Positions 5,194-38,185 of a DNA stretch of 38,185 nucleotides are shown one piece after another (position 1 is the stretch's first letter; every line of letters begins with the position of its first letter). Source of the stretch: Folioceros fuciformis. Its lineage: Eukaryota. Position numbers and translations under genes: made by a program. The stretch spans positions 370,169 to 408,353 of the forward strand of contig JBNGIO010006320.1 of assembly GCA_049999805.1 (NCBI GenBank), written 5' to 3'. Below the pieces are notes generated by a model, which saw nothing but the letters and a program-made list of their open reading frames with translations, searched no databases and had not been told where the DNA came from.

Positions 5194-8124
5194 TGTTAAA
5201 AATCAAGCTCTAACTGAATTGTTATTAAGAGCATACAACACTTAGGATAGTCTAGATTATCCCATATTGAACTCGTAGTTATCTACCACCTAAGCGTTAT
5301 CAGGATATACCAAGATATTGCACCCTCGAGACTAAGGCTTACCTTATCGAGGGTTGCCTCGATAAGGTAAGCCTGCTTGAAAATGAATTCAGCTGCTCCA
5401 TCTCTTGTCTAAGATTAGATGGAGGGAGAGAATATGTCTCAAATGAGTTTGACAAGTATCTTGCAGATCATGGTATACGAAGACAGCTGACTTGCAGATA
5501 CACACCACAGTAGAATGGTGTCGCAAAGAGGAAGAACAGGGTAGTCATGGAAACAGCAAGGGCCATGCTGAATGAGAAGTGCTTACCTAATGATTATTGG
5601 GCAGAAGCAGTGATGACAGCAGTGTATGTACTGAATCGAACTCCTACGGCAGGAATTCATTATGCTACACCAATTGAGAGACTGTATGGCTATAAGCCGG
5701 ATATTAGACACTTGAAAGTGTTTGGGTGCATTGCATATGTGCAAGTACCTGATGAGAAGCGTAGGAAGCTGGATCCTAAAGCGGTGAAGAATGTTTTTCT
5801 GGGGTATGCACGAAATAGAAAGGCATATAAGTGTTATGTGCCATCCACATGAGATCCTGATAAGTAGGGATGTGGTATTTGATGAGTTAGCTTCCTGGTA
5901 TAGCAACTCAGTTGCACAACCCTATGACAAACCCACAGGGAAGAGTACTGTTAAGAGTACTCCAGCAAAGAGTGAGGATGTGATCAATGGTGGATCACTA
6001 ATGGTGAATCCATGGTCTGAAAGACTACGGAATGGTAAACCCAAGACCACTGACCCGGACATGTTAGTGAGGGGGAGAGTAGAAAGCAGCAAAACTAGAA
6101 ATGAGGGATATGAATCCTCAAGTAGTGAGAGCATTGACAGTGAGGTTGGCATTCCGTCTGTGGAAACACCAGGTGCTATGGAGCAACGATATGCAAGGCA
6201 GGTTCAAATTGAACCAAGACCAAGGAGATCTGAGAGGGTTAGGAAACCCATTGACAGGTACACCTATACATGCTACAATGTGCAACATTATGCGTATATG
6301 ACAAGGGTCATAGCTTGTAAGGAGCCAACAAAGTTTGCTGAGGCAGTGACAGATGATAAGTGGTGTCAAGTCATGGATGAAGAATACTCAGCATTAGTTG
6401 AGAACAGAACGTGGGATTTGGTTCAATTACCTGATGACAAGGTTCCTATTGGTTCTAAGTGGGTGTACAAGATGAAGTTCAAGTTAGATGGAACGCTGGA
6501 GCGTTACAAGGCTAGGTTGGTTGCAAAGGGATATGCACAACAGTATGGTCTTGATTATGAGGAAACCTTTAGTCCAGTAGCCAAGATGACAACTGTAAGG
6601 ACAGTCATAGTATTAGCAGCAGCTAAAGGATGGAAGTTATGGCAAATGGATGTCAAGAATGCTTTCTTGAATGGTGAGTTGTAGGAGGAAGTGTACGTGG
6701 AACAGCCTGAAGGCTATGTTCATCCTAAGTTTCCAATGTATGTATGAAAACTAAAAAAGGCATTGTATGGACTCGAACAGACACCTAGAGCATGGAATGC
6801 TCGTATCACAAGCTATTTGAAGGAGCGAGGGTTTGCGAGGGTTTGTGATTGGAGACGTAGATCACAGTCTGTTTGTAAAACAGACCAAGGGAGGACAAGT
6901 GTGTCTTGTCGTTTATGTTGACGACCTAATCATCACAGGAGATGATGCAGATGGTATTGCAGATGTCAAGGCGAATATGCAAAAAGAGTTCAAGGTGAAC
7001 GATCTTGGTGAACTCAGATACTTCTTAGGAATTGAGGTTGTGTCTACACCTCAAGGAATCTGGCTATTGCAAAAACAATATGCTAAGGATATGCTGCAGA
7101 AGTATGGCCTGGTAGATTGCAAAGTGATGGATACACCATTGGAGCAGAACGCCAAGCTGCAAATGGATGTAGAAACTGAGCTGGAAAATGTGACCATATA
7201 TCGACAGATGGTCGGAAGTTTGATCACTTGACTATCACACGTCCTGACTTAAGTTATGCAGTAGGACTGATTAGTCAATTCATGCAGAACCCAAGGAAAC
7301 CGCACTTGGATGCAGTTAGAAGAACCATGAGATATGTGAAAGGAACTATTGAGTTTGGATTGCTCTATGAGCATAGGAAGCATCTTGAACTAACAGGATA
7401 TACAAATGCTGATTGGACTGGTTGTGCGTATGACATAAGATCAACCAGTGGATATGCATTCAGTTTGGGAAGTAGTATGATCAGCTGGCAAAGCAAGAAA
7501 CAACCGACAGTTGCTTTGTCAAGCACAGAAGCAGAGTATCGAGGAGCTGCAATGGCAGCCTATGAAGCAGCTTGGTTGCAGAAGTTGCTAAATGATCTTG
7601 GAAATATAGTGAACAGCAAGGTCACAATCTACTGTGACAACATGAGTAGCATGAGGTTGGCTACTAATCCTATGTTTCATACTCGTTCGAAGCACATAGA
7701 AGTACATTATTATTTCATCAGGGAAGCGGTATTATCTGAGAAGATAGATCTTCGGCACATGAAGATCGAAGACCAGGTAGCAGATACCTTTACTAAGTCG
7801 CTAGGTAGAGATAAGTTCTTACACTTTCGTGAACTACTTGGAGTGTTACAAATAGTCTGAGCTTGAGGGGGAGTGTTAGAAATCAAGCTCTAACTGAATT
7901 GTTATTAAGAGCATACAACACTTAGAATAGTGTAGATTATCCCATATTGAACTCGTAGTTATCTACCAACTAAGTGTGATCAGGATATACTAGGATATTG
8001 CACCCTCGACACTAAGGCTTACCTTATCGAGGGTTGCCCCGCCTGAAGGCTATATATGTAGCATCCTGTGCACCATAATGTATGTACTGTGGAGTCCATC
8101 TAAGCCAGTGGTGCTATTTTAACA
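5194..8124 (+). mobile_element. Nested Ty1/copia element 'N' with an internal deletion
   Basis: TG...CA termini, TSD CAAAC at 5189-5193 and 8125-8129, full 3' LTR at 7874-8124 preceded by PPT GAGGGGGAG (7865-7873). The 5' LTR is truncated at about 5375 and joined directly to the integrase core. Confidence 0.93.
5378..7860 (+). pseudogene. Copia pol of element N (integrase core, RT, RNase H) with stops and frameshifts
   Basis: CLRLDGGREY, YTPQ*NGVAKRKNR, HLKVFGC, YKARLVAKGYAQQYGLDYEETFSPV, VVYVDDLIITG, TRPDLSYAVG, SKKQPTVALSSTEAEY, RSKHIEVHYYFIRE, in IN-RT-RH (copia) order. Confidence 0.95.
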
Positions 8125-8129
8125 CAAAC

Positions 8130-9093
8130 CCATGTGTTGCAGGAGATCAGTAATATTTCTGATGTCTTGCTGGAGTCGATTTGTGCAGACAAGAATTGCT
8201 CGTTCTGCTTGGGAGTCCATATAGCGGATTCTGTTCTTGAGACAAATATGATTTGCAGACACTAGAGATAAGACCCTCTCCACGCGGGTGAGAATTTCTT
8301 GTGCCTTTTCCTTGACACTTGTTATGCCGGTATGAGGGTTGAATTTCGTGTTGCGTTGCGTTGCTATTGGTGGTTGGATTCTCGCAATAGGTCGAAGGGC
8401 CTTCCTAGAAGGTCTGGACAAGAAATTCGATGAAGCTAATGTTGCAGATCGAGGTGTGTAGTACAAGTCGGAGTTTTGCCCACGCCGGTAGCAACGTTCT
8501 TGACATAGTTTGTCAACTTCTTGATTTCTGTTGATTCTTTTTGTAGATGTGTTGCAACAATGCTTGGCAGCAAACTTATGTAGCTAGAGGTCAGAGTAGT
8601 TTCGATCGTAGAGGTCCAGCACCGTATCTAGATGTGTGGGTGCTGTATGCCTTGGTGAAGATCATGCTGGAAAATTGTGTCTAGAGGACAGATGTGTGGG
8701 TGCTGTATACCTTGGTGAAGATCATGCTGGACAATTGTGTCTAGAGGACAGATGTGTGGGTGTTGTATACCTTGGTGAAGATCATGCCGGACAATTGTTT
8801 CTAGAGGACAGATGTGTGGGTGCTGTATACCTTGGTGAAGATCATGCTGGACAATTGTGTCTAGAGGACAGATGTGTGGGTGCTGTATACCTTGGTGAAG
8901 ATCATGCTGGACAATTGTTTCTAGAGGACAGATGTGTGGGTGCTGTATACCTTGGTGAAGATCATGCTGGACAGTTGTGTCTAGAGGACAGATGTGTGGG
9001 TGCTGTATACCTTGGTGAAGATCATGGTGGACAATTGTGTCTAGAGGACCCACCTCGGAGTGAGGCGCTACTATTTTTACCATGCCTTGGCAT
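8130..9093 (-). pseudogene. Decayed extra ORF upstream of gag in element A (continues at 5188 beyond the nested insertion)
   Basis: The ATG at 9093 opens MPRHGKNSSASLRGGSSRHNCPP*SSPRYTAPTHL..., in the same frame as ORF 8119..8466. Shares motifs with the extra ORF of element B. Confidence 0.55.
8630..9049. repeat. 60-bp minisatellite, 7 near-identical units
   Basis: Unit AGATGTGTGGGTGCTGTATACCTTGGTGAAGATCATGCTGGACAATTGTGTCTAGAGGAC, visible as identical columns in consecutive 60-nt lines. Confidence 0.98.
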
Positions 9094-9136
9094 CTTTAAG
9101 ATCTGTACTCAAGATACTTACCATGCTTTGATACCA

Positions 9137-9385: not shown

Positions 9386-11296
9386 TCATTGCAGAGGCAC
9401 ATGAGACTTCCACCAGCCTGTGGAGTCCACAGTTCGTAGCTCATCAGCAGGTATCCATCGCCAGTCCTTCTCTAGCAAACCCAGAGAGCAATCGCTGGGG
9501 CATCCTGCCATTTCCAGCACTCTTGGCAGGTGCAGTCTGCTGGGGCAGTCGCGCTTCAAATCCCTGGGTATGCCTCTAGATCTGTACTCGTGAGCATCTA
9601 GGGCAGGGCCCCACTTGCAGGTCTGTGTCGGCGTGGGAGCCTCGATCAGAGAGTCTCCAGAAGGCGGGCTGTGTCGAGCCTTGGCAACGCCAGGATAGAA
9701 TGAGGGGTTCTGGATGCTATGGTACCGAACTAGCAAAATGGCATATGTCAGCATCCTTCCCTCGATGCTGCAAGTCCAGCCCAGCTCTCGGTGCACCGTG
9801 GTCACCATGTCTGAGATCTCGTGGTCGTGATTTTGCATGTATTGCAGGACTTCAGGCAGGTCTCTAAAACTGCACACAGTAGACAAGCCTGGCAGGAGTG
9901 AGAGCTAGCGCACGTGCAGCAGTAAGAGGAGAGCGAGTTGAGGTGTTGGAAGCACTGACAAGTGGTCTGTCTCCATGAAATGCCGCCCACGTTTGAACAG
10001 CGGGTAGTAGAACTCGGAGAAGGGAGAGCTTTGTAGAATGACGGCGCGGTCAGAGAGCATGACTCCGCACAGCCTGGTGATCCCCATCCCGCCGTCCACT
10101 AGCACCTCGTACTTGTACTTGCTCTTGTGGGTTTCGTTCAATTTGGATCCCAGGATGATCCCGCCTTCCTCCTGCAAGGCTCTGATAGATTCCGGCTTGG
10201 TATGGCTCCACCTGCTCACTCTGGCGTCCAGCAAGTCAGGGACCGCGTCCGTCATGCGGTGCAGCCGCACCCGGGGACTGCTCACCCAGTTCGACAGCCG
10301 CAGCCAGTAATTGGTGGTGGATCCTCTGAACACAGCCTTGGGCACCTTCCCATTCCACTCCTCCAAATTCCAGCTGACTTTCAGCATCTCGTCTCGGGAT
10401 GGCATGTAGGCAGGCCTCCAGTCCAAGAAATCCGGCACTAGGAGGTCGGCATCCAGGCCCTCGCTCACGTGAGAGCTCCACACCAGGAAATTGGCCCTGC
10501 CGCCCTCGGCCATGCCTTCCCTGGACATAGAGTGGTCGCATGTGTTGAACAGCAGCTCCACTTCTACCCCTCGCAGCTGAAAACGGTCGACGGTGGCCTG
10601 GAGGAAGGACGCCAGATCGTTGGCCCGGTTCAGCTTGAACTGGTCCGCCAGGAAGCCGCCGTAGCGGAAGAAAACCTTGCCACCCACAACTCTCACGTGA
10701 GCGCAGCACGAAGCCAGAGTGCTGTTCTGCAGCGATTGCCGGAGAAGCGAGACGGACCATAAGCTCCGTCGCACTGCCGAACCGACCGGTTGCGATTGCT
10801 GTATCGGAGCCCACCCCTCCGTGTATTTTTCCACCAGCTGCAGGATCGGGCGGATTCTGGAGTCCGTCAGGTTGAATGCGGCGCTCGCCAGTCGCAGCTC
10901 CTCTAAATCGGAATCCTTGATCTTGATGCTGCTCACGCGGGCGTGTTGGACGTCGGAAAGAGTGAGCCTGTTGCGGGCCACACTCAGGTTCCCAGACTTG
11001 TGAATGTTCGGGGGCAGCTTGTACCCTGACTTCTTCTCACACCTGTAGAAGCGGCCACGGTGGGACGGTCCTGAAGCGCAAGGAAAGATGGTGATAGGCG
11101 GGTTCCCGAAAACCTGGTCCAGCAAGCATGCGCTGTAGTACGAAATGACGATCGTGGCCCACAACAGCAAGCCCAGCAGCCAAACCATCCAGCGAGGCCG
11201 GAGAAATGACCTTCTGGCCCCTCTGAGCTGCAGCGAGGATGATCGTAGGGGTTCTGCATTCTTCGCATCCTTAGACTGCTCCTGGCCGGAGCGCAT
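9386..11296 (-). CDS. Glycosyltransferase family 90 / CAP10-domain protein (rumi/KDELC/DUF821-like), probable type II membrane protein, 2 exons
   Basis: N-terminal TM segment RPRWMVWLLGLLLWATIVISYY. Motifs VELLFNTCDH, WNGKVPKAVFRGSTT, KYKYEVLVDG and FSEFYYPLFKRGRHF. GT-AG intron 9959-9870 joins TDHF|FRDLPEVLQY in frame to the stop at 9386. First in-frame ATG is at 11296; the frame stays open further upstream, so the start is uncertain. Confidence 0.85.
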
Positions 11297-12057
11297 GCTG
11301 CTGGTTTTATCTCCGTCCCGGTCTTGTGGGATGTATAACCGTTCCCTGGGTGCGATCGTCTTTCTCGCAAACGATCTTCCAAATCCACTGATTGCGAGAG
11401 TCGGGGAGACTGATTGCAAGCAACAACACGTTTGCTCCGAGCTCTTGTGTCGTGGACGTTGGGATGCAGCTGCCTCTCTCTTTCTCACTGATTTGCAAGA
11501 CTGAAGTCCTTCGTTCAAATCACATGCCTTGGATATCGCCTTTCATGGCGAGATTCCGCCTTGGTCACGATAACGTACTTGACAACTACATCGAGGACTC
11601 GAGACGGAAGCTGGGGCGCTGAGACAGAGGTTGTCCAAGTGCTCGTTCAGACAGCCCCTCCATCGATATCGAGGATGCCAGATGGTAGCTGTGGAGGTGA
11701 GGAAACTTCTCCACCGACTCGTTCAATACATCCTCGTTCCACCGTAATCCTTCGGAAATTCAAATCAACATCAAGACTGGGAACGACTGCACGTGGCTGC
11801 TGCCAAGCAGTCGTAGTCTAGCTGGGTTAACGTTAATTATGCCATGGATGTACACACGCTCTAAGAAAGCAGCATCTGTGGAAAGGGGCTCAGTCTGCAT
11901 GGTGTGCCTGCATCACCTTTTGCAGGTTTGGCGTTACTCCCTTTCCGTCCTGCCAAAGCTCTACTTTTTTTTGTGTTGTTCCCAAAACCAGCTTGGGAAA
12001 GGATTTGTTATCGCTTTGTGCGCCTTCTACCATGAATCAAACGAACCGGATTGGATC

Positions 12058-12486: not shown

Positions 12487-13683
12487 AGCCACGTATATAC
12501 ATGGCTCTGCGCGACATGTTTCAAGACCGGGTGGTGGGACGAACTCACGCCCCGCAGGCCGGTTTGTCAAAGTACCGCTAACAGCATTCCCTGCGGCTTG
12601 TGGAGCGGGAAGGGTGAGTGCTTTGGGGAAAGAGTTTGGTCTGGTTTTGCTCCTTCCCTATTCCCGCTCTCAATGCACTTAGGTTGAATGCGGGGGCTCT
12701 CCAGAAGGAACTCCTCTACATGAGGAGCCTCGATCCTGATGCTGCTCACGCAGGCATGTCGGACGTCGGAGTGAGTGAGCCTGCCGTAGATGGTCCGTGC
12801 GTTGGAAATTCCCCCGGATATTTCCGACTCTCGAAGGACGGCATCAAACTACCACCGGTCATGGATTCTCCTGCAGCAGCAGCAACCAGAAAAGCACAAA
12901 GTGTAAGCACAGAGCCCAGGCCTGTTATCCACTCTGCTCAACAAAAGGATGCACCGTGCGACAATGTAGAAAGCGTTTGGTGGGGCTAACTTTCAGGACG
13001 GAAGCCTCCGTGCCGTTTTACTTTAAAACGGCGCACATTGCACCGAGTCACTTTAGCAGGTGGCGCAAAGCTTGTAACGGCAATCACGATCAGAACAGCA
13101 CCGCGCACTTTCGTACCTCCAGTCTTTCGGCCTTGTCAAAATTGGACGAACACCTCGTCCGCAAGACGGGGACTCCCACTCCAATCTGAAGCAAGCATGT
13201 CTTCATCTCATGAGTTGCATCCTGCAGATGAAAATTGGAATTTCACGGATCAGAACTCATCTCCTCAGCTCCAGCAGAGGTAGGTGGAGATCTTCAGAAT
13301 GCTTGAAGAGACACGCCGCAGTGCTGGATTCCAATACGACAACTCCGTGGCGCACTCCTGAAAGACCTGCAGACGCGGATTGGCCTGAGCTCACGGGTCC
13401 ACGTTGTTAGGTACCAAGTCCCATCATGGAAAAACCCGTCCTCAGCGGACTTCAGTAGAATTCTTCTTTTCTTTCTTCTTCATCGCTATCCACATTAGTG
13501 CAGATTGCTCTCCCAGTCTCCGCATGCAAAATCTTGGAAGTTGCCAGCGAATCCCCAGTTTGAGAGCGTGATCACGCCGTCGGCACTTGCGGTTCCACTA
13601 TGGAATATCTTGCGCTCCCTGTGACAAGTATTAAGGCAGAAGAAAAAAAAACATCAAGGCAGAAGGCTCCAGGCCTGTAAGCT

Positions 13684-16575
13684 ATGGATTCCGTGGCATC
13701 ATCCTCCAGCCGCAGTAGGCTCCTCTGCTGCCTGATATGTTGCTTGTTTTTGCTACACCAGGCGCGCTCGGCCTGGGCTTCCCCCGAGCCGCGGCCCGGG
13801 CCTTTCGTGGAACATGCCGTGCCTGTTTTCAAGTCACAGCTACGGCCCGAGGCCCGTTCCAAACCGGGCCCGGAGCGGAAAACACCTTTTGCTACACTCG
13901 AGCCTGAAGACAAACCTGTATCCGAGCCTCGATTGGAGGCTCGCACAGACTCGCGGCTCGAGCCACGTTCCGAGCCTCATGCACGGATTCAGTCCGAGCT
14001 ACCACGACGTCCAGAGAAGCATCGGATGCTCGGATCGAGATTTTTGAATGATGTTGCGCCTCCTCCGCCACTCACCAGTCGCTCGGGAGATTTTCCTCAA
14101 CACTTTGTGTTCGGGACGGCTTCAGCTGCCTATCAGGTTTGGTTGCTGCACCGTGCTTGCAATTGGTACGACGAATTGCTTACTGAGTCGGTGCTTCTGA
14201 ATTGTAGTACGAAGGTGCAGCAGCCGAAGGAGGTCGAGGACCCAGTATATGGGACACATGGACGCACATGCCAGGTCAGGCCTGAGTTTTCATTTTTGCG
14301 CCTGGCCCAGCATAAGCTGGCTTGTCTAAATTGCTGAGGTACGGTTGGATTGCAGGCAAGACAGAAAATGGAGACACTGCAGATGTTGCTGTTGACCAGT
14401 ATCACCGATACAAGGCATGTCTCCTCTTTTGCTCTTCTGGAATTCCAGGTTTATGGGTTCATGCTCAAAGTTGTGGGTGTGATGCTCCAGGAGGATGTTC
14501 AGCTGATGAAGGCGATGTCAGTTGATGCTTACCGTTTCTCTATCTCATGGTCTCGTATTTTTCCAAGTAGGTCTCTTTCTCGTCACCTCAACAGTGAGTG
14601 TCAAGGCACTGTTTCTTTTGGGCCATCGTGATGGGCTGGTGCAATTCCTTATGCCAGATGGAACTTACCCCCTGAATCAAGAGGGAGTTGACTACTACAA
14701 CAACTTAATCAATGAACTGGTGGAGAACGGTAGGGATAAAGCAAGTCTCATGGTTTTGGTGATGAGTTCACGCGTGCTACACGGGTCTGTTTTCTTTGCC
14801 TTATGCGCTGTAATGTGTGCAGGTATTCAGCCGTTCGTCACGCTTTTCCATTGGGACCTCCCTCAAGGTATAGAGGATGCATATCAAGGATGGCTCAGCT
14901 CACAGACGGTGTAAGCTGAACTGCTTTGAGAAGTTCATGCGTTGACACTTGGTGGAGAGCCCTCAAGACGTGTATTGCATTGCAGGGAAGCATTTACTGC
15001 CTACGCAGATACTTGCTTTAGGCTTTTTGGTGACCGAGTAAAGCACTGGATCACGTTCAATGAACCACACACCTTTGTTCCCTATGGCTATGATAATGCA
15101 GCCTTCCCCCCTGGAAGGTGCACTGGGTGCCCGCAAGGAGACTCGTCAACAGAACCCTACACTGCAACTCATCATGTGCTTCTCTCCCATGCAGCAGCTT
15201 ACAGAGTCTACCAAAAACGTTACAAGGTTGCTGTGCTTCCATACTCGTTTTATCGGGGCCAGTTTGGCCATGGGCTAGCATGATTTAGTGCCATCTCACA
15301 AGATGTCTCCTTGCTTGCAGGCGTGTCAAGGTGGACAGGTTGGTATCACCTTGGACACAACCTGGTATGAGCCGCTGAACAAGTCCGCGGCAGCTGATAG
15401 ACAGGCTGTGGAACGAGCCATCCTGTTTCAACTTGGCTGGTTAGTCAAAGTTTGTCATGTCATCTAAACCCTCAACCATTTACAGTTTCTTGTCTTGTAT
15501 GCTCATTAATTACTTTAATAACTTGCATGGTCTACCAGGTATCTCGATCCTATCGTCTTCGGAAGGTACCCATCTGTGATGAAACGAGCAGTTGGAGACC
15601 GCCTTCCTAGATTTTCAAAAGGGCAAAAGAAAGCAGTAAAACGCTCGTACGATTTCATAGGCATCAACCACTATACCTCCTTGTATGCCTACGATTCTCG
15701 ACCAGCAGAAGGGGCGGTGGTTTCCTATTTCAATGACCAAAATGTCAGCACTACAGGTACTGGCCGTATCCCGATTTCCGAATCACACTGCTTTGGGCAG
15801 GTTCTTTGTCCATAGTTCGTGCAGTTCCTAATTTTTCCATTCTGTGATGTATCGTCTTGGCTGCTGTGGGAAGCTCAACGAGGAGACCAACTCATCGGGA
15901 TACAGGTAAGCCTCTTGTAACATTGCAAGCCCACCTTCGTCCTCAAGCATCATGTCAGATGTTGTGATCGTGACTTTCTTTGCTGTACAGGGGGCTTCTA
16001 GTTGGCTGTACATCGTGCCATTTGGCATTGAACGAATGCTTCTTTGGGTGAAACACCGTTACCATTCTCCGCCCATTTTTATCACTGAGAACGGTCAGCT
16101 TTCACACTCTCTTGGAGCCTCCTATTTCAGACTCACCTCGCTCATCTGTTGGGTTTATGGCCCTACCTCCCTGGCGCGTACCTGACAAGTGTAATCTGTT
16201 GGACTGCAGGCTTCAGTGACAGCTCCAGCCTATCAAAGGCAGCCGCCCTGAACGACAGTCTTCGCCAATCATACTTGCAGAGCTACCTTCCATATGTTTC
16301 TCGCGCGCTAAGGTACGACACATACGGAGGATGTATGTGAGGAAGACCAGGAATGGCTCACCACTGAATTTTTGCTTGACTTGACTGACTGCAGAGAGGG
16401 CGGAGTGGATCTGAGAGGCTATTTTGCGTGGTCTCTGCTGGACAACTTTGAATGGGGTTCTGGCTACACAATCCGATTTGGTCTGCACTACGTGGACTAC
16501 GAGAACAACCTGCAGCGTACTGCCAAAGACTCTGCACTGTGGTTCGGAAAGTATCTGTCTCGTTGTCAGCAATAA
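13684..16575 (+). CDS. BGLU: Glycoside hydrolase family 1 beta-glucosidase, copy 1 (13 exons, signal peptide, Pro/Glu-rich stalk)
   Basis: [39 protein letters not shown], acid/base motif TFNEP, GINHYT, nucleophile motif [14 protein letters not shown]. Exons by eye: 13684-14136, 14208-14274, 14356-14414, 14491-14566, 14658-14729, 14823-14910, 14986-15226, 15321-15439, 15539-15756, 15874-15905, 15991-16093, 16210-16312, 16395-16575. Confidence 0.95.
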
Positions 16576-16736
16576 GGCAGAGCACCATCTGTACTGGCAC
16601 GTTGATATCTAATTTTCAGGTCAAAATTGATGCCCACTGGTCTTAGAGAGCTGCTCCTGACGGAACGGTTACCCATCAAGCAATTCACACGGTACTATGT
16701 CATTCAAGGTTTATCAGTCCATTCATATCCTGTACG

Positions 16737-17969: not shown

Positions 17970-18413
17970 TATAATGCCAATATCGGTGTCTTTCCTCTGC
18001 ATACCATTAATAATGTTTTTTTTCGAGCAAGCCTCTTGGGTGGCATGGTTGTTCACATGATCCCTAGGCTTTGTTGACAACCAACATTACAAAGTCTTAC
18101 GGTCTGTTGTACTATCTATATACATGTATGGGCCGTTTTATACCATGGGTCCATTATGCTACGCACCTTTCTTTCTCTAGGCAATATGGTTTCATACTTT
18201 CTTTGGGCACTATACTAGTATAATGCCAATGTGGGTATCTCTCCATTACATGCCATTAATATTGTTTTTTTAATCTCCGAACAAGCCTCGTAGATAGATA
18301 GCATGATGGTTCATCGTACACCTACATGTCAAATGTTTTATTAATGCCATAGGCTCCCTACCCTTCTAGTTCATAATACTACATACGTGAATGGGGTCAT
18401 TTTATACCATGCG
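17970..18413. repeat. Diverged tandem duplication of about 250-260 bp in AT-rich intergenic DNA
   Basis: TATAATGCCAAT..GGTRTCT...CATRCCATTAATAWTGTTTTTT...CGARCAAGCCTC occurs at about 17970 and 18219. TTTTATACCATG occurs at about 18135 and 18400. Confidence 0.65.
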
Positions 18414-18997
18414 CTGTATATGAGAAAGTACGTTTAATATCCTAGTGTATACACTATGACATATAAAAAAAAGGAAGTGTATACAACATGGTTTATACAC
18501 CAAGATATTATATCATCCATTAAGATTTTTTTTCCATTTCAATCTTAATTACTATTTATTTGGAAATGCATTATTTTACGAAAATCCATATATAACAACA
18601 TAGTCTTTCTTCAACTTTGAGGTGCTTTGCAGAAGCGTTTGATCAAAGATAGTACTTTACTAATTGATACAATTGATTACAAGAGGTGGGCTTTTATAGC
18701 ATGTGTCTGAAGAGTTGTACCTCTTGGGTACTAGATACCAAAGGGTATGACCACGCTGGGTTAAGCTAAGGTAACCATAACCAACACGGTCTGCACTTCT
18801 AACTCTCCCTCTCAGACAAGTTGGGTTATCTAAATCAAAGAACTAATAATCACTTGCCGCTGGAGTATTGTATAAGTACTACGGTCTTCAACCAAACTCA
18901 ACTCACCGATCGTCACCGGTTGCAAGTAAGATTGAAGCAAGCGGTCTACAATAGCTGTCAACTTTAAGTAACTGAACGTTCTGAGATAAGACGCGCC

Positions 18998-21900
18998 TCA
19001 CCAAATGTGTGACTGGTCTAGCTTCAAAAAGCTGCTACAGTCAACCAATCCAAGCCCTTCTCTGTGGAAGCAGTGTTTGAACTTCGGCAAGGATTTTGTT
19101 AGTACATCTGCTGTATTGTCGTCTGTGGGTACATACTGTACCTTAACAATTCCCCTCTCAGCAGCATCACGAATATAATGGTGTTGAATCTCAATATGCT
19201 TCGTGCGCGCATGAAAGACAGGATTAGCGACGAGAGCAATGGCTGACATATTGTCACAATTAAGCATTGTTGGCCCTTCCTGCTTCATATCCAAATCTTC
19301 GCATAGCTTTCTTTCCCATTTAGCCTCTTTCGTGGCTTCAGTGAGTGCTTTGTACTCCAATTCTGTTGATGAAAGTGATATTGCAGCTTGTTTTCTACAA
19401 GACCAATTAACAACAATGGAGCCAACAAGAAAGCAATATGCTGAGATAATTTTTTGGGTGTCAGTGTCTGAAGCCCAATCTGCATCGACAAAGCATGTCA
19501 GCAGCAGATGCTTCTTTCCGCTAGGCTTGAAGCAGAGGCCATAATTTGGAGTATCCTTGAGGTACCGCATGATGCGCTTGAGAGCAACCCAGTGATCCTT
19601 TCCTGGATTCTCTGAGAACTGAGCAATAGCATTTACAGTATTTGAGATATGAAGTCCGGTCTGATTACTCAAGAACATGAGAGTACCAACTCCCATACGA
19701 TAAGGAATATTTTCCATCTCTTTCTTTTCCTGTTCTGATTGTGGACAGGTAGCAGATGAAAGCTTAACTCCTACGGCGCCAGGTGTGGCTGCCGCACGTG
19801 CATTCTCCAAATTGAAGCGTTTTAACATACCAGCTACATATCTTCCTTAATGGAAATAGATAGCACCAGTGGTATCTCTATGTACATGCATTCCAAGAAT
19901 ATATTTAACTTTGCCGAGATCCTTCATCTCGAATTCTTTACTAAGGTCAGCTTTAATCTTGTTAACTAGTTCAATATTGTTACCAGGAATAACTAAGTCA
20001 TCAACATATAGTGCAACCAACACAAGGGAGCTGTCCTTGCGAAGTACATAGATATTAGTGTCTGCTTCACTTTGGATAAACCCTATCTTCTTGAGGTAAG
20101 AGTCCATTCTCTCATACCATAAACGTGGGCTTTGCTTTAGTCTGTAAATAGAACGAATAAGTTTACAAACCTTGTTTGGGTAATGCTCATCTTCATATTC
20201 TTCTGGTTGATCCATATAGATCTCTTCTTGTAGATGACCATAAAGGAAAGCAGTACAAACATCAAGCTGATAAATTTCCAGATTAAGCTCGGCACATAAA
20301 GCCAGGAGCATTCTCACGGAAGCAGCCTTGACCACAAGCGAATATACCTTATCGCCCTGATAGTCCACTCCCTCTTTCTGACTATAACCCTTAGCCACTA
20401 GTCTCGCCTTATAGCGAATACGAGGTTCAACCTCTTGGAATTTAGTTTTGAGAACCCACTTGCATTTGACAGTAGTTCTGCCTTTCGGCAAGTTTACTAG
20501 AGTCCAGGTATTGTTTTTGATAAGAGAATTATATTCATCATCAATAGCAAACTTCCACTTAGCTGCATCAGGTCGCGAATATGCCTCTTGAAGAGTAAGA
20601 GGATCTCCCTCTGAAGGGGCAACACTGAAGGCGTTGAAATGACCTGCAGCAGTGGTGGTGTAGCTAGCTTGATTGAACTCTAAATCAAAGGGGATCTCAT
20701 TCCAGAGGTGTCTCGGTTGACGATGACACGAAGGATACCCTCGCTCAGGGGCTGGATCAAGTGTTACGGGAGAAGGTGGAGCAGGAACTGTCTCTGGGTC
20801 TTGTGAATTAAGACACCAAAGTCGTCTCTATTTTCATAAGGATCAACAATGGCCTATTCATCTTCCCCCTCTCGAGCAGGAATAATAGGTATAGGTGCTG
20901 CTTGAGGTGAAGAGGCCAGGGATGGAGCAGAAGTTGCAGGACCAGAGTCCGGGAAAACAGAGGGCTGAGTCAAAAACTCAGGCATAAGGTCACCTGGGTC
21001 GGAAGAAGCAGTGTCGTCTGAAGGAGCCGAAGTAGAATCCATGGACTCAGAACGAGCAGATGTTAACCGAGCCTCATCAAAGGTGACAGTGCGAGCATAT
21101 ACAATAGCATGGGTAACCAAGTCAACCAGTTTATAAGCCTTACGGTCCTCGCCATAGCCAACAAATACCAACTTGCGAGCGCGAGCAGAAAGCTTGTCGC
21201 GAAGCTGAGAAGGAATATTAGCATAGGCGGGGCAGCCGAAAAATCCGAAGATGAGTAATAAGTGGCTTATATCCATGCCAGGACTCAAAGGGAGTCTGGC
21301 CAGGAACTGACTTGGAAAGAACCCTGTTGCGTAGATACACCGCAATATTAACCGTTTCGGCCCAGAAGGGTTTGGGGAGTTGAGCGCGAGCTAGCATGGC
21401 GCGGGCCATGGCGAGCAGATCGCCGTTGGCCTTTTCAGCAACCCCATTCTGCTGAGAAGTATAGGGAACCGTAAACTGACAGATAATCCCCCTCTCAAGA
21501 CAGAAGTCCTTAAAGTGCCGGTTATTTAATTCTCCTGCATTGTCAGATCTAATGCACCGAAGCTTGCAACCAGTTTGCAGCTCAGCCATAGTGACAAAAG
21601 GAGTAAAGGAGCCGAAAGAATCACTCTTCAACTTGAGCGGAATAGCAAAGGTATAGCGACTATAGTCATCAACAAGAGCCATAAAGTGTAGTGCACCGCC
21701 AAGTGAAGGGACTAGGAGTGGACCACAAAGATCAACATGGACCAACTCCAAGGGCTGAGTAGTCCGACGGGCAGGTAGAGTAGGATAGGGGAAGCTACGT
21801 TGTTTAGCATATATACAAGGTTCACATAACGGAGGAGTCTGTGAAAAGTGTGGTAGCTTATCCCTAAATAAATCCTGCCTAGACATCTCTAAAAGCTTAT

Positions 21901-23392
21901 CATGATTAATATGTCCAAGCCGAGAATGCCATAATAGGGAGTCACCTTTGCGAGAACTCCCTCTGTCGAGCGCAGTGGCCATTGCGGGAGCTGGGGTCGA
22001 GGAAGCTGTGATCACTGATACGGCGGAGAAGACATAGAGGTCATGCCGCGGACGACCTCTAGCAACCACGCGACCAGGAGCAACAGATCTTGTGAGGAGG
22101 CAATCGCCTCTGCCAAACTCTAGCCTGAAAGTAGTGTCCTTCACCAAGGGTCGGACGGAGATAAGATTCTTCGCCATTTGCGGAACATGTAGCACATCAC
22201 TTAAAAGAAGGATAGAACCATCGGCAAGAGTAAAAGTAACAGTGCCAGTGCCCGCAATAGTAAGGCCGGAGTCATCGCCGAGAAGAACAAAACGTTGATC
22301 TTCGGCAGGGAGATAATCCGAAAACATATGGTGATGGCAGCAAATATGTGCGGAAGCAGCTGAGTCCAATAGCCAAGAGGTCTTGTATTCGAAAGCTACC
22401 AAGCAGACTGTGAGGGCAATGTCGGCCTGTTTCTGCTTGGAGGTCGAGGCCATATTGGCAGACTTGGAAGGGCGTCGAGGCTCACCGGCTTTCTTCTTGC
22501 GGTAGTCAGGCTCCCAGTGGCCTGGAATCTGGCACCAGTTGCAAGTACCAGGCTTGCGGCTGGAACCACCAAGCTTGGAGAAGGAAGGTCCGCGAGAAGG
22601 AGACAGAGAAGGCGCAGTGAAGGGCCGTCTCTCAGGGGGAGGAGGACGACGTCGCTACTGGGGCTGGTGACGTTGACGGCCTTTGCTCACGAACATAACT
22701 CGTTCACCACCATGCTTCGAAGTGCCGGTGTTGAATCTGGAAGCCTCCTCTTGAAGGAGAGCGCCGGCAATTTTGGAGATGGAAATGTTGGGTGTGCGGC
22801 CAGCCTTTACCGCCTGATGAGCCTCTCGAATAGTGCCATTCTGAGAGGACACAAATGCTTGAAAGCTAGCGGGAAGGGAGGCCAGTAGTTGGACACAAGC
22901 TTCAAATTCCGATAAGGGAGTGCCTAAAGCAGCAAGCTGGGCACGAAGATAACGAAACTTCCCAACATAAGTACCAATGCTCTCATTATTATGCATGCGT
23001 AAGGAATAAAATTCGTTACGCACTGTGACTAATGTCATAACATTGGTAGATTGAAAAATATCTAGTAGCTGCCGCCAAGCCTCTGCAGCAGTAGTAGCCC
23101 CATCAGTATGATGTAGGGTGACTTCGTCAAGGCCTGAAATAAGAATGTGAAGTGCAAGCCTGTCTTGTTTGATCCAAGAGTTGAGAGCAGCAGAGGGACC
23201 AGCAGGCCGTTGAATGGTGCCATCCACTATGCCAAGCAAGTCACGAGTGTTGAGTATGGAACGCATATGCTTGGCCCATATCTCAAACTTTGTGCCATCA
23301 AAACGGTCTTTTTCTTTGAATTCAGAAGAAACATTCATATAATTAATAATTGGTGTAGGTGGAGTCGGCAAAGGAGAGGACATCGATGCCAT
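18998..23392 (-). pseudogene. gag-pol polyprotein of element B with a few stops and frameshifts
   Basis: Gag DRFDGTKFEIW, knuckle CNWCQIPGHW, protease WLLDSAASAHI, LWHSRLGH/CEPC, LVHVDLCGP, IRSDNAGEL, QQNGVAE, YKARLVAKGYSQ, ALYVDDL, FVDADWA, HARTKHIEIQHHYIR. Confidence 0.95.
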
Positions 23393-25223
23393 AGTTCTGA
23401 TAATCAAGCTGTAATATAATAATATAAAAGAAGGAACACCGACTGTAAGTTATGACTGCAGCCGAAGGGGCTTCTAATATAGTTATATGAGAAAACTTGA
23501 GGAGCAGAAATATTATGAAGACAAAGAGTAAAGTCAAATAGCCCAGTGAACTATGCCACGGATCATTAGGGGCATAGACAGTTGAAAGGTGCTGAACCGC
23601 TTGAGCAGCGGATTGCACTGACTCAGAAAGTTGGTGAAGATGATCCCAAAGATGTCGACACTCCAACTGAAACAGCTCTTGACCAGTGGCAACTGCTTGC
23701 TCATAAAGGTAGCGTTGATTGGCGATGTCGTCAGAAGGCAGGCGTGGCGACAAGGGCTCTTGTTTGATTGCTGATGCTGGAGTAGGTGTAAGGACGAGAG
23801 CCGGGGGCGACTTATAAGGAGTTGGCGAGCTACCAAAAGTCACGTCCGCTAACCGAGGAGGCACATCCGCTCGGGTGCCAGGAACCTGAGATATCAAAGG
23901 ACGGACACAGGTAAGAAACGGATGAGCCGTTTCATACCCCTGTGAAAGAAACTCCAACTGAGTTTCATTCGGTGGGGTCAAAAACGGCCCCGGAAAAGAA
24001 ACTCGGTTTAAGTTCGCAGCCGGGGCACCGATTCGCGGCTCGGCCGAACGCGCGCGCACGTCGGCTGCGCGCAGCGCGCGCTCATAACCGCCAGATCCCC
24101 CTGGATCTACACCCCCGCCGATCTGGGCCGATTCCCCACCAATCTGGGGCGCACAAAATGCAGAAGGGGAGCCCTGACCTGGCGATCTAGCTGGTGAGAG
24201 ATCTGAGCCGACGGCGGCCGGAGCTGAAACTGATTGGTCTTGGATGCCCGCTGAAGGATCTGCAGAAATCTCAGTCTGTTTGAACGTTGGAGCTCTCACG
24301 CATGTAGGAATCTGGACGCCAGAAGATTGCGCCGTTGCTGAAGTGCAGGTGCAACAGATTTGATGAGGCATTATGCCCGCAACAGCAGAGGCGCAACTGT
24401 TCAGTTCTTTGGCCAATAATCCGTTTGGTGGAACCCCAGAGACCTGCAGATCTGACGAGATATTAGCTTGTGAGGGGGCGACTACTGGAAATGAAGCGCC
24501 TCCTGTAATCTCAATGATGGGTGTCATCTTTCGGGTCCGAAATCCAGCGAGGAAGGCAGCAGCTGCAGAGATTTCAGCCTTCAACTACTGATAAGAAATC
24601 TGCTGTTTAACTTGCTGAGTACATGTTGCTGGGAAAACATGAGAAGGTATCCTATCCAGATCGAATTGAGATAACTGGTGATCTTCCAATGGGCTCAGAT
24701 TAGAACAGTTGACAGGGACTTCTACCTTCTCCATGGATTGCCCACATGATAAATACCACTTCTTCTTATTTAAGCTAGTAGATGTTCGATCATCTTTATC
24801 TGACCTTTTAGATAGTGAAGAAGAGGAAGTGTGAATTGGAGTGGCTGGAGTATATCGAGGTGAGCTCCTATGTTGCCGAAAGATGATGATTGATGTTGGC
24901 TGCTAGATACATCCCCACAATGACGCAATAGACTGGAGTCTGAACTGTTTGACCAGTGCCCTTCAGATAGATTGAGATATTCGAAAGCTTGAGTCTTTGG
25001 TAGGCGAATTGCAACCAATTGTCGAGGTTGATGTTGATGAGAGGTGGTTGTTCTCCAATAGATAAACCGTCAGGACTTCAGCAATTGTTAGTCCTAATTG
25101 TTGAAGGTTCCTAAATGTAAAACCACGCCTTGAAGAATGAGAGGTGTGGTTACGACCACACCTGTTGTTGTAATGCCGAGATCTTCTAGCAGTAGCGTTA
25201 GTCTTTCAGTGTCTTCTGGCCAT
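23343..25223 (-). pseudogene. Decayed extra ORF of about 627 codons between PBS and gag of element B, function unknown
   Basis: A single frame runs from ACA-ATG-GCC at 25223 to the stop at 23343. It is interrupted only by TGA 25208, TGA 24965, TAG 24905 and TAG 24587, and includes the 413-aa ORF 23343..24584. Confidence 0.65.
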
Positions 25224-25691
25224 TGTGTGAGGATGTAGAAGACACACCAAAGGAGGTAAAAGTACAAACAAATGTTGCTGAAGAGGAAATGAACAAAATA
25301 GAGTGCTAAGAAGCATTTATGAAAAGAGAGACATCCAAATCACTAGATGAAGAAGAGGATAGTAAAATTCATAGCCAAACATAATTAAAAGAAACAGTTT
25401 GGGAATTTGAAGTTTTGCTAAAACCTATAACTTAAATAACGCATTTAATTATAGTATTACAAAACACAACAGGATAGAATAACGTCGAAATGCATTTTAG
25501 AAAATGCTGAGAGAACCAGGCTCTGATACCAACTTTGAGGTGCTTTGCGGAAGCGTATGATCAAAGATAGTACTTTACTAATTGATATAATTGATTACAA
25601 GAGGTGGGCTTTTATAGCCTGTGTCTGAAGAGTTGTACCTCTTCGGTACTAGATACCAAAGGGTATGACCACGCTGGGTTAAGCTAAGGTA

Positions 25692-25791
25692 NNNNNNNNN
25701 NNNNNNNNNNNNNNNNNNNNNNNNNNNNNNNNNNNNNNNNNNNNNNNNNNNNNNNNNNNNNNNNNNNNNNNNNNNNNNNNNNNNNNNNNNN
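25692..25791. other. Assembly gap (100 N)
   Basis: A run of exactly 100 N, typical of a gap of unknown size. Confidence 0.99.
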
Positions 25792-28170: not shown

Positions 28171-29045
28171 AGTAGACCACAGGTTGTCGGGTATTCCGGA
28201 CGCCTTTTTGGGTTTGCATCATAGATCCTTCAGAGATTCCGCGGTGCTGTGAGAGCACCTGTCCCATGTCCACAGTCTAACGACTGAGAATTAGAAATTA
28301 GATATTGGTGTGCTGTACTTCAAATCAAAACTAACACCGGTATCCGATCCAGATGCAACTGAAAATGCGGCATGCAGCGGCAAGGCGTCGTGGCGCGCCC
28401 TGCGGATTCTGCTTGATGCACGGAGCGCTTGGTGAGGCAGTCCTTGAGGACATTTCAGACTTCCACGAATACTGTGAGAAGCCGCAAATTTTATCGAACG
28501 ACTTTAGCAGGGCGTGCAAGCTTGTAGTGGCCACGCTTGTAACGTAAATCAATTGGAACAGCATCGACATCACGTTCGTACCACCACTCCTTCGCCCCTG
28601 CCCGCGTCGGACGCACTGCTCGTCCGGAAGGGAACTCCCGTTCTAGTCTGAAGCGAGCAAGCCTTCGTCCCATGAGGTGTATTCTGCCGATGAGAATTGA
28701 ATCTCCTCGGGTGAGAGCTGGTCTCCCAGGCTCCAACATATGTAGGTAGGTGGAGATCTACAGAATTGTTGAAGAGTCACGCCGAATTGCTGATGTTCGA
28801 TAGGACAATGCCGCAGAGCACTGCTGGAGTCCCGTAGGCGCGGATTGGCCAAAGCTCACCACCATCCACATCAATGCAATCCGCGTCTGCCAGTCTCGGC
28901 GTGCAAGTTCTTGGAATTGCCAGTTTAGGAGCCTGATGAGCCGGTAAACAGGTCACACTGTTGGCGCCTGCGGCGTGCTATCAGCTATGGAATCTCTTGC
29001 TCTCCCAGCTATATCCATGGCCGCAATCGGATGCATCTTCAAGCC

Positions 29046-31922
<2,877 letters not shown>

Positions 31923-32446
31923 AGAAGAGCGGCTCAATAATTTCTTCTTGTCGCGTGCTGAGTGTAGACAGTGTTTGTCCCCTAGTCTGTAACGTCGTGG
32001 TAAGCTTCTGGGCTTGTAGCGAGGAAGGAGGGCGCTGAGCTGGAGATTCCCATGACCAAGTAGTACTTAAGTGTGTATGTACACGAGGTGACACATGCAA
32101 AGTGGAAATGCCATGAGTTTCTTGGGTCCAGAGTTCGATACGCCCGGAATCTTTTTCCCTACACGGCAATGTGCTGCTGTTAGCATGCTGCGGTTCGTAA
32201 TGTGTAGACGATTCTCCCCGGCGTGTAAATGGAACAGCAACAGCTCCCTTCTAATTGCCCCTTGGGGAGCTGAAAAGTTTGTGGGTTGAGATGAGCGCGT
32301 TAGGCGGAGCCATTTGTCGGGGTAGAAGGCATGTGAATTGGCGGTAAGAAAATGCATGACGGCAAGGCGGGTGACTGTTGGGGATGTCGCTCTGGATCTG
32401 GGCTGCTTTTGAAGCGCAATTGAGGCAGTAGCTGCTGGATTTGAGC

Positions 32447-33667
32447 ATGCCGCACAGAGTGGATCCGCCCAGTGGGGATCATGTTCCCGGGAAGCACTAC
32501 TACATGGTGGGTGGCACCATCTTTGAGCTGGATACCAAGTACGTGCCGATTAAGGTTATTGGCAAGGGCGCCTACGGAGTGGTGTGTTCTGCGCGCAACG
32601 ACACCGGCGAGTCTGTGGCCATCAAAAAGATCTCTAACGCCTTCGAGAACTGCACCGACGCTCGACGAACGTTGCGGGAAATAAGGCTGCTCCGCCATCT
32701 CTCACACGAGAATATCATTGCCGTGAAGGACATCATGAGGCCTGTGGGTAGGCACTACTTCAACGACGTTTACATCGTGTATGAGCTCATGGACACCGAT
32801 ATGCATCAGATCATCCGGTCCAACCAGCCTCTCACGGATGAGCATTTCCAGTATTTCATCTACCAGGTATTATCTCTTCGCTTCCTACGTGCTTCTGGGT
32901 GCAGCCAATTTGTTGGTGGGTGGTGGCTTTGGGACAAGAGCCCAGGGTCCTGACTTTCGGCGGCCTCTCACGCTTGCCTGCAGCTTCTGAGGGGTTTGAA
33001 GTACCTGCACTCGGCTAACGTCCTGCACAGAGATCTTAAGCCCAGCAACCTGCTGTTGAATGCCACTTGTGATCTCAAGATCTGCGATTTTGGGTTGGCA
33101 CGCATTGGCAGCGATGAGGGCCAGTTCATGACTGAGTATGTGGTCACAAGGTGGTACAGGGCACCTGAGCTCCTCCTCTCCTGTGAGGAGTATAGCAGTG
33201 CTATTGACATGTGGGCTGTGGGTTGCATCTTTCTGGAGTTGTTGGCCAGGAAACCCATCTTTCCCGGGAAGGACTACATCCATCAGCTGAAGCTGATCAT
33301 TGACCTCATTGGCACCCCAGATGAAAGTGAACTGGAGTTCATCCAGAATCCCAGGGCCCGGAATTACATCCAAAGCTTTGATTATGTTCCTCGTGTTTCC
33401 CTTGCAAAACTATATCCCAGTGCCAACCCCCTGGCCATCGACCTTATTGACAGGATTCTTGTTTTTGACCCTCGGAGGAGGCTAACTGTGACGGAGGCTT
33501 TGGAGCATCCCTATCTGGCTGTACATCATGATCCAAGCATGGAGCCTGTAGCTCTTGCACCGTTTGAGGCCGAGTTTGAGCAGGACGATGCCAGCGAGGA
33601 CGCCTTGAGGGAGGGGGTGTGGAGTGAGATGCTCTATTACCATCCTGAGGCAAGCATCGAGCAGTGA
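32447..33667 (+). CDS. Mitogen-activated protein kinase, TEY type, most similar to plant group C (MPK1/2/7/14-like), 2 exons
   Basis: [43 protein letters not shown]. Single intron 32867-32983 (FIYQ|LLRG). N-terminus [16 protein letters not shown] and C-terminus [10 protein letters not shown]. Confidence 0.95.
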
Positions 33668-37650: not shown

Positions 37651-37867
37651 CTAAGTACTTGACCCTAATGCCTAAGTATTTGATCGCATTGGATACCTTC
37701 TATGACCAATGGTGGATGGAAGAGAGATGCCTTTGTTTTGGACTCGATAAGATGCATCATTGGATGCTTCCGACTATGTTTACTGACCCCATGTTGGGGT
37801 CACATGGAAAACCTTAGTAATCCACACCCTAATCCAATCCCAACCTATTGCTTTGAGAGATATATTG

Positions 37868-38185
37868 GGGGTAAGAACTTCTTGGCCCATCCGGGTAAGA
37901 ACTTCTTGGCACATCCGGGTAAGCTTGGCACATCCGGGTAAGAACTGCTTGGCACATCCAGGTAAGAACTTCTTGGCACATCCGGGTAAGAACTGCTTGG
38001 CACATCCAGGTCTTGGCACATCCAGGTCTTGGCACATCCGGGTAAGAACTGCTTGGCACATCCAGGTAAGAACTGCTTGGCACATCCGGGTAAGAACTTC
38101 TTGGCACATCCGGGTAAGAACTTCTTGGCACATCCGGGTAAGAACTTCTTGGCACATCCGGGTAAGAACTTCTTGGCACATCCGG
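37868..38185. repeat. 24-bp minisatellite running off the window end
   Basis: Unit GGGTAAGAACTTCTTGGCACATCC with T/G and G/A variants and a few internally deleted 16-19-bp units. Confidence 0.98.

Follow-up and report, generated by a model that had tools for sequence, protein, structure and literature searches.

A 413-codon sense open reading frame between the primer-binding site and gag of a broken Ty1/copia retrotransposon from Folioceros fuciformis

Results

Element B and its features

The DNA analyzed here, which we call the window, is a stretch of 38,185 nucleotides (nt) from Folioceros fuciformis (assembly GCA_049999805.1, contig JBNGIO010006320.1, positions 370,169 to 408,353 of the forward strand). 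Its minus strand carries a Ty1/copia retrotransposon, referred to below as element B, in which an extra open reading frame (ORF) of 413 codons lies in sense orientation between the element's primer-binding site (PBS) and gag. The original prediction had described a longer, hidden frame of about 627 codons at this position. From the 5' end of the element to its 3' end, the features are as follows.

25530..25691, minus strand: 5' long terminal repeat (LTR); its first ~13 nt fall in the 100-N assembly gap at 25692-25791
25520..25531, minus strand: PBS TGGTATCAGAGC, directly after the 5' LTR, read off the sequence
25224..25519, minus strand: AT-rich leader (GC fraction 0.32), directly after the PBS, with 6 short upstream ATG frames
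24585..25223, minus strand: N-terminal 213 codons of the 627-codon frame (the N part), interrupted by four stops; most likely leader that codes for nothing, or else a long-dead remnant
23343..24584, minus strand: extra ORF (the C part), 413 codons from stop to stop and 394 from ATG 24527, in sense with gag-pol
18998..23392, minus strand: gag-pol of Ty1/copia type, from Pfam and tblastn, broken by two stops and two frame changes
18796..18813, minus strand: polypurine-tract-like run GAGAGGGAGAGTTAGAAG, a short way upstream of the 3' LTR and assigned this putative role by its position
18612..18786, minus strand: 3' LTR, ~175 nt, beginning TGTTGG and with a TATAAAA motif inside; its start was placed after the purine tract

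Membership of element B in Ty1/copia follows from copia-type Pfam families that succeed one another along the minus strand in the order gag, protease, integrase, reverse transcriptase (RT) and RNase H. Retrotran_gag_2 matches in 22655-23449 (1.3e-28), Pol_BBD, gag_pre-integrs and rve match in 21218-22654, upstream of RVT_2, and RVT_2 itself matches in 19847-20827 (7.7e-65); an Rfam search of the element gave no match. A direct-repeat comparison of 18612-18773 with 25530-25691 found the LTR pair identical at 157 of 162 positions, with 5 mismatches. The assembly gap of 100 Ns (25692-25791) lies exactly at the outer edge of the 5' LTR, and the sequence beyond it may not adjoin. We take TGGTATCAGAGC at 25531-25520 to be a match to the 3' end of initiator tRNA-Met. 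A complete tRNA-Met site is used by most copia lineages (Neumann et al. 2019, PMC6317226).

The gag-pol region of element B contains two in-frame stops (TAG 22657-22655 and TAA 19849-19847) and two frame changes, near 21240 and at 20810-20866 (frames -2, -3, -2), located by colinear tblastn alignment of 6 related polyproteins. These polyproteins align to the start of element B gag from their residues 3-31 onward, without an N-terminal extension. The gag ATG is at 23392, and the leader between the PBS and this ATG measures ~2.13 kb, in agreement with the ~2.1 kb originally given. At the other end, the pol stop (18998) is only ~210 nt away from the 3' LTR (18786), and element B has no ORF after pol. 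We conclude that element B is an old, broken Ty1/copia copy, and that it is dead.

The RT region (19847-20827, minus strand) was compared by a word-index search against proteins of 572-2000 residues, and it is 35-53% identical to the best 120 of 4586 database matches, with the top-ranked matches at 44-50%. The hosts among the matches listed are a Closterium alga, pine, beech, Phytophthora, an ant and Aspergillus, and no close relative is among those listed. By this sequence comparison, the pol of element B may represent a poorly sampled lineage, which is a separate matter from the extra ORF.

A 413-codon sense frame with the properties of coding sequence

The frame of 627 codons is present as it had been described, running on the minus strand from ATG 25223 to TAA 23343 with four internal stops and no frameshift. 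The stops are TGA 25208-25206, TGA 24965-24963, TAG 24905-24903 and TAG 24587-24585 (codons 6, 87, 107 and 213), and all four fall in the N part. Over the whole leader there are 8 stops in this frame versus 29-51 in the other five frames, and none of 300 shuffles yielded a 627-codon span with fewer than 11 stops; the openness of the frame is far from chance. Its translation as a whole contains 77 Ser, 58 Ala, 54 Leu and 47 Pro.

Within the 413-codon frame there are 0 internal stops versus 15.5 expected (minimum 3 in 2000 shuffles), and its length exceeds that of the longest frame both in 2000 mononucleotide shuffles (maximum 264 codons) and in 1000 dinucleotide shuffles (maximum 276). The C part (24584-23343) holds a single stop in this frame, its own terminator, versus 17-28 in each of the other five. 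Base composition depends strongly on codon position (chi2 52.1, p 1.8e-9), with corresponding chi2 values of 38.5 for gag and 70.9 for RT, and a codon model trained on element B's own gag-pol scored frame 0 of the C part at -0.003 bits/codon and the other five frames at -0.31 to -0.43. G occupies the first codon position at a frequency of 0.32 in the C part, 0.29 in gag-pol and 0.16 in the N part. Tandem Repeats Finder detected no tandem repeats able to keep the frame open, the only repeat in 23300-25600 being one of 16 nt in 2 copies. The start codon at 24527 has A at -3, and at the other end the ORF runs for its final 50 nt over the beginning of gag, in a different frame, with the ORF stop lying 49 nt past the gag ATG. 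Only two ORFs in the 38-kb window are longer than this stretch, a glycosyltransferase-like ORF (545 codons) and a piece of pol (478 codons). We conclude that the 413-codon sense frame codes for protein or did so until recently; since it remains open, it is not really hidden.

The 213 codons upstream are most likely leader

The original prediction had joined the N part to the extra ORF as one gene, and it is here that our results depart from it. Stops in the N part number 4 in this frame and 6, 14, 18, 13 and 18 in the other five; among the sense frames alone the counts are 4, 6 and 14, and the neighboring sense frame is almost as open. Codon-position composition reveals no periodicity (chi2 10.7, p 0.10), and the codon model ties frames 0 and 1 at -0.16 and -0.15 bits/codon. 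The gag-pol of element B has accumulated 2 stops in 1465 codons, a rate at which 0.29 would be expected in 213 codons, and 4 were observed (P 2.4e-4); the density is ~14 times that of gag-pol, and the excess persists when the N-part stops are compared with all four gag-pol lesions (P 0.003). It follows that the N part had been closed by the time the element last inserted, or that it was never coding. It had further been argued that each of the four stops is one C-to-T change away from CGA or CAG, as expected from decay of methylated sites, which by the genetic code holds for any TGA or TAG and is uninformative. The ATG at 25223 does have the strong context ascribed to it (A at -3, G at +4), but the frame that it opens closes after 5 codons. 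We conclude that the 213 codons upstream of the extra ORF are most likely leader and not part of a recently intact gene, and that a genuine sense ORF lies between the PBS and gag, with 413 codons backed by the data rather than 627.

The predicted protein and the search for relatives

We modeled the 394-amino acid (aa) protein with AlphaFold2 on the single sequence, which gave a mean predicted local distance difference test (pLDDT) score of 42.5 and two predicted helices, with codons numbered along the 627-codon frame.

23574..23732, minus strand: predicted long alpha-helix, residues 266-318 of the 394 aa (codons 498-550), pLDDT 55-72, AlphaFold2
23493..23549, minus strand: one transmembrane helix predicted, SLGYLTLLFVFIIFLLLKF, corresponding to residues 327-345 (codons 559-577) in the AlphaFold2 model

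At codons 555-568, Kyte-Doolittle means over 19 residues are 1.6-2.5, matching the predicted membrane helix. Helix 327-345 coincides with LGYLTLLFVFIIFLLLKF, the one segment that is strongly hydrophobic, and ~50 residues follow it; the hydropathy scan revealed neither a signal peptide nor a second membrane segment. The helical-looking stretch and the hydrophobic tail noticed originally in the translation correspond to these two helices and to the hydropathy peaks. The protein is thus rich in Ser, Ala, Leu and Pro, and is predicted to be disordered over most of its length and to have, toward the C terminus, a long helix and a membrane helix.

Searches for relatives of this protein were negative throughout. 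No Pfam family matched the extra ORF at E values up to 0.01, and extending the threshold to 10 produced only noise far below the cut-offs (Rhabdo_glycop_CD, E 0.041; Cucumo_2B, 0.053; Sporozoite_P67, 1.8). Word-index protein searches confirmed 0 of 8000 scored candidates for the 413-aa ORF and likewise 0 of 8000 for the 626-aa read-through with X at the stops, and an exhaustive phmmer search of 1,835,955,588 representative proteins returned 0 matches at E values up to 0.001. The ESM Atlas yielded no relative, PDB sequences yielded noise only (one Fab light chain, E 0.37), and none of 33 pattern matches to viral contigs held up. By these sequence searches, the extra-ORF protein is without detectable relatives. 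We also considered that the ORF might be a diverged duplicate of gag, and BLASTP against element B gag reached only E 0.79; a search for a second copy or a donor inside the window found only the self-match.

Depth of the leader in the organism's reads

Logan contigs from one sample of the same organism, sequenced in three DNA runs, were placed on 18400-25691 at a likeness of at least 80%, with contig depth taken as a rough proxy and not as copy number. A further run, X4, presumed to be RNA, placed no contig on this region, a result without bearing on expression. In run X1, single own-copy contigs had depths of 10-18 and the eight leader bins across 23524-25475 summed to 13-40. Depths in the same run were 107-358 for the gag bins, 186-885 for the pol bins (with RT reaching 885), and 75 and 275 for the LTR bins. 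By this proxy, the leader in run X1 is worth ~1-3 copies, with gag-pol and the LTR several to tens of times higher. Being non-coding, the LTR would be expected to diverge no more slowly than a leader under neutrality, and yet it is several times deeper, which indicates that most relatives sharing the LTR and gag with element B at 80% identity or more lack this leader. Because most of these relatives do not have the extra ORF, it is not a hallmark of the lineage. Vicient and Casacuberta 2020 (PMC7264820) set extra ORFs found in most copies of a family apart from those found in one or a few copies, and presence in all or most copies, the sense of a conserved accessory gene, was not seen here by the depth proxy among copies at least 80% identical. 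Of the proposal that element B stands for an undescribed copia lineage with a 5' accessory gene, what survives is a copia-borne extra ORF without detectable relatives; the low depth of the leader tells against its being a trait of the lineage.

A 442-nt contig matches 24493-24928 with 42 differences (~90% identical) and a net length difference of 6 nt, a multiple of three, which shows that at least one further, diverged copy exists. The leader of element B itself is covered by error-free read contigs at 23411-24009, 23930-24356 and 24493-24939, and the passage from leader to LTR is bridged by a contig of run X3, at 25083-25587 with 57 differing letters. Since read contigs cover both the leader and its junction with the LTR, the leader is no artefact of the nearby gap. 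Run X3 contigs on 18400-25691 differ from the assembly mainly by C-to-T (475 places) and G-to-A (294 places) changes, as in a bisulfite-type library, and methylation data for this organism may therefore exist.

Surroundings of element B in the window

Two copies of a ~3.3 kb segment, at 13278-16600 and 28744-31930, are 71-90% identical and 15.36 kb apart, and the second holds a fragment of glycosyl hydrolase family 1 (Pfam 6.8e-14, 30674-31126). The arrangement suggests that a beta-glucosidase-like gene was duplicated in tandem and that element B lies inserted between the resulting copies. Beyond it, a protein kinase domain on the plus strand (32432-33667) is split, with positions 2-109 of the Pkinase profile in 32432-32953 and positions 100-263 in 32954-33667; these stop-to-stop frames follow directly on one another and share a reading frame, so an in-frame stop lies inside the domain and the gene is a pseudogene or the sequence contains an error.

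Toward the start of the window there are copia fragments, of gag at 3844-4392 (minus strand) and of RT at 5788-6684 (plus strand), with repeats of 87-168 nt around them (1159/9214 and 5194/7874). Sequence comparison identifies these fragments as the remains of another copia element or elements, unrelated at the DNA level to element B. The window's longest ORF, with 545 codons at 9905-11542 (minus strand), has a weak match to glycosyltransferase family 90 (E 8.2e-06) and is probably a host gene. A tandem array with a 60-nt unit at 8570-9109 is open in both strands and comprises 7 overlapping 180-nt family copies, mostly 96% alike, spaced at 60 nt over 540 nt; another, with a 24-nt unit (GCTTGGCACATCCGGGTAAGAACT-like), occupies 37856-38163 at the window end.

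Discussion

A probable acquired passenger

Our preferred reading, to which we give a probability of roughly 0.5, is that the extra 5' forward ORF is carried by a small subfamily and is an acquired passenger rather than a lineage-defining accessory gene. The small share of family copies that bear it suggests that a small subfamily would have picked up the ORF as a passenger, most likely by template switching onto a co-packaged transcript during reverse transcription, in a transduction-like manner. The ORF-bearing copies would then probably have been mobilised in trans by intact relatives, with the ORF itself probably dispensable for transposition. Vicient and Casacuberta (PMC7264820) explain extra ORFs present in one or a few copies by transduction and describe such sequences as usually sense, as the ORF of element B is. 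Between the PBS and the gag ATG there are 23 ATGs, 13 of them before the extra ORF's own ATG, and translation of gag-pol by scanning from a full-length LTR transcript should consequently be poor, which fits a variant mobilised in trans. Alternatively, poor scanning would make splicing or re-initiation necessary. The unique read contigs begin (23410/23411) where a pyrimidine-rich TTACAG has its end, at 23409 and 17 nt ahead of the gag ATG, which we regard as a lead only; splice-site scans of the leader returned weak candidates only.

Several observations weigh against this reading. Leaders less than 80% identical are missed by our placement, so a fast-evolving homologous ORF in other members of the family is possible. 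The second copy, ~90% identical and differing by a net 6 nt, together with LTRs 3% apart, suggests that the form with the ORF lasted across more than one insertion, and a maintained gene would fit this as well. Capture is something we infer, and no homologue of the extra ORF that could be its donor was found in the protein databases or in the window. The extra ORF is intact while gag-pol carries four lesions; at the gag-pol lesion rate the probability of 0 lesions in 413 codons is 0.32, which is not significant, and intactness is for this reason no evidence of selection. Finally, the 13 ATGs before the start of the extra ORF argue against its efficient expression under any reading.

Alternative explanations

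The ORF may instead be an accessory gene, a distinct copia subfamily keeping a 5' gene for a membrane-anchored protein that aids its life cycle, with gag reached through splicing or re-initiation; we regard this as possible but doubtful, and equally tentative are the roles one might propose for it, such as membrane targeting of particles, an env-like or movement-like function, or evasion of silencing. It would account for the strong coding statistics and for a frame left intact in a copy whose gag-pol is broken, yet that intactness is not significant (P 0.32). The second copy, ~10% diverged with a net length difference of 6 nt, and a general likeness to the proteins of Tekay 5'aORFs (PMC11728184, discussed below) point the same way, as do the position of the ORF stop 49 nt past the gag ATG and the TTACAG site 17 nt before that ATG, at the start of the unique contigs. 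Against these stand the depth of the leader (13-40, versus 107-358 for gag and 75-275 for the LTR), the lack of a homologue in the databases searched and the 13 upstream ATGs before the ORF start. Stated in full, the proposal would be of a maintained 5' gene, in a copia subfamily of a poorly sampled plant lineage, whose membrane-anchored and largely disordered protein is translated from the genomic RNA, with gag expressed after removal of a leader intron ending at TTACAG or by re-initiation at the ORF stop; in that specific form we consider it a long shot. Similarly improbable is a gene of all 627 codons from ATG 25223, intact at insertion and later closed four times by methylation-driven C-to-T changes. 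Its ATG has a strong context, its read-through needs no frameshift, and the 4 stops in 213 codons are fewer than the shuffle mean of 11.8 (P(<=4) = 0.0048, for one frame), but the neighboring sense frame has only 6 stops in the N part, where composition by codon position gives no signal either (p 0.10) and the codon model puts frames 0 and 1 level. First-position G falls to 0.16 there, compared with 0.32 in the C part and 0.29 in gag-pol, 4 stops are too many for the 0.29 expected at the gag-pol rate (P 2.4e-4), and being one C-to-T change away is true of any TGA or TAG.

We give little credence to the view that the ORF-bearing region is a separate mobile element or unrelated DNA inserted in a short native leader, or an assembly artefact beside the 100-N gap. 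Base composition invites it: the GC fraction along the leader runs from 0.32 through 0.42 to 0.52-0.62, with a CpG observed/expected ratio of ~1.0 at 23700-24299, whereas gag-pol has a GC fraction of 0.47 and a ratio of 0.63. The GC-rich core of the leader, at 0.53-0.62 over 23700-24299, fits sequence of other origin or age and is not decisive. The assembly gap at 25692-25791 and the start of unique-depth contigs ~20 nt upstream of the gag ATG would also suit this explanation. The gap lies outside the leader, however, and error-free contigs run over the leader, with the X3 contig spanning its junction with the LTR. A separate insertion with its own termini and target-site duplication was one outcome that the original prediction had named as fatal to it, and the leader edges show no terminal direct or inverted repeats and no target duplication, only chance-like matches of 12-29 nt; Pfam detected no transposase, RT or other domain in the leader. 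That the leader is simply non-coding, with the long frame a by-product of composition, is already very unlikely on the statistics. The Ser/Ala/Leu/Pro-rich translation does resemble low-complexity sequence, the mean AlphaFold2 pLDDT is 42.5 and there are no homologues; yet 0 of 3000 shuffles reach the observed length, only one frame of six is open (1 stop versus 17-28), three-base periodicity is strong and the frame is free of tandem repeats. We continue to favor an ORF acquired as a passenger by a small subfamily.

Comparison with known extra ORFs

Extra ORFs of plant LTR retrotransposons are common and very diverse, and almost all are without known function. A low-copy passenger ORF in a dead element would not surprise a specialist. 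Its value here lies in annotation, where it warns against calling the extra ORF a host gene and against using the 627-codon reading. If element B did have a maintained 5' gene, Ty1/copia would have its first case of a functional accessory gene located upstream of gag; this would widen a picture in which the 5'-of-gag extra ORFs studied so far are those of Ty3/gypsy (Ogre, Tekay), and would give a new candidate for element-host interaction. Among the papers that our literature search returned, a search that the per-lineage extra-ORF table of Neumann et al. 2019 lay outside of, none has as its subject an ORF upstream of gag in copia.

In their survey (PMC6317226), Neumann et al. consider extra ORFs of at least 250 codons and class them by position and orientation, with a 5' forward class (eORF-5'F) included. 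The ORF of element B is longer than 250 codons, lies upstream of the polyprotein on the forward strand of the element, and contains no tandem repeats of the kind they exclude (at least 3 monomers spanning more than 150 bp). It is thus an eORF-5'F (also 5'aORF) by operational definition, a category already catalogued in plant LTR retrotransposons. The same survey reports extra ORFs in 582 Ty1/copia elements, forming 45 similarity groups of which 19 are SIRE 3' forward ORFs, and the premise of the original prediction that copia extra ORFs are confined to the env-like ORFs of SIRE is on this evidence too narrow. A known domain was present in only 21.4% of extra ORFs, and independent acquisition from several sources was concluded. 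The element B protein resembles the eORF-5'F proteins in being heterogeneous and without a conserved domain, and differs in that it matches no protein in the databases searched.

The nearest likeness in position is to Ogre ORF1 and to the sunflower Tekay 5'aORFs (PMC11728184), which lie between the PBS and gag in sense orientation and encode proteins of ~400 aa with biased composition, largely disordered and with few helices; the Tekay proteins are described as Pro-rich and 92% disordered. Both systems are Ty3/gypsy and not copia, however, and neither shows sequence similarity to the ORF of element B. The Tekay ORF is moreover present in 500 of 523 group members, whereas that of element B is found in a small minority of its family, and the Tekay proteins are predicted to be nuclear, whereas the element B protein has a predicted membrane helix.

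SIRE (Sirevirus) elements offer a copia-borne extra sense ORF (eORF-3'F), whose sequences are highly heterogeneous, falling into the 19 groups noted above (PMC6317226). That ORF follows pol and occurs in 74% of SIRE elements, whereas the extra ORF of element B precedes gag, and element B, whose LTRs are short (~175 nt), lacks an ORF after pol. Plant env-like ORFs are described as encoding proteins with transmembrane domains (PMC7264820). The extra ORF does encode one predicted hydrophobic helix (codons 559-577), and so shares a predicted transmembrane segment with them, but it does not lie in the env-like position between pol and the 3' LTR. Transduction, as in maize Bs1 (cited in PMC7264820), differs in that no donor gene has been identified for the ORF of element B and in that gag-pol has been retained here and not replaced; it provides the closest parallel to a passenger, with foreign coding sequence carried in sense orientation by an LTR element and present in one or a few copies.

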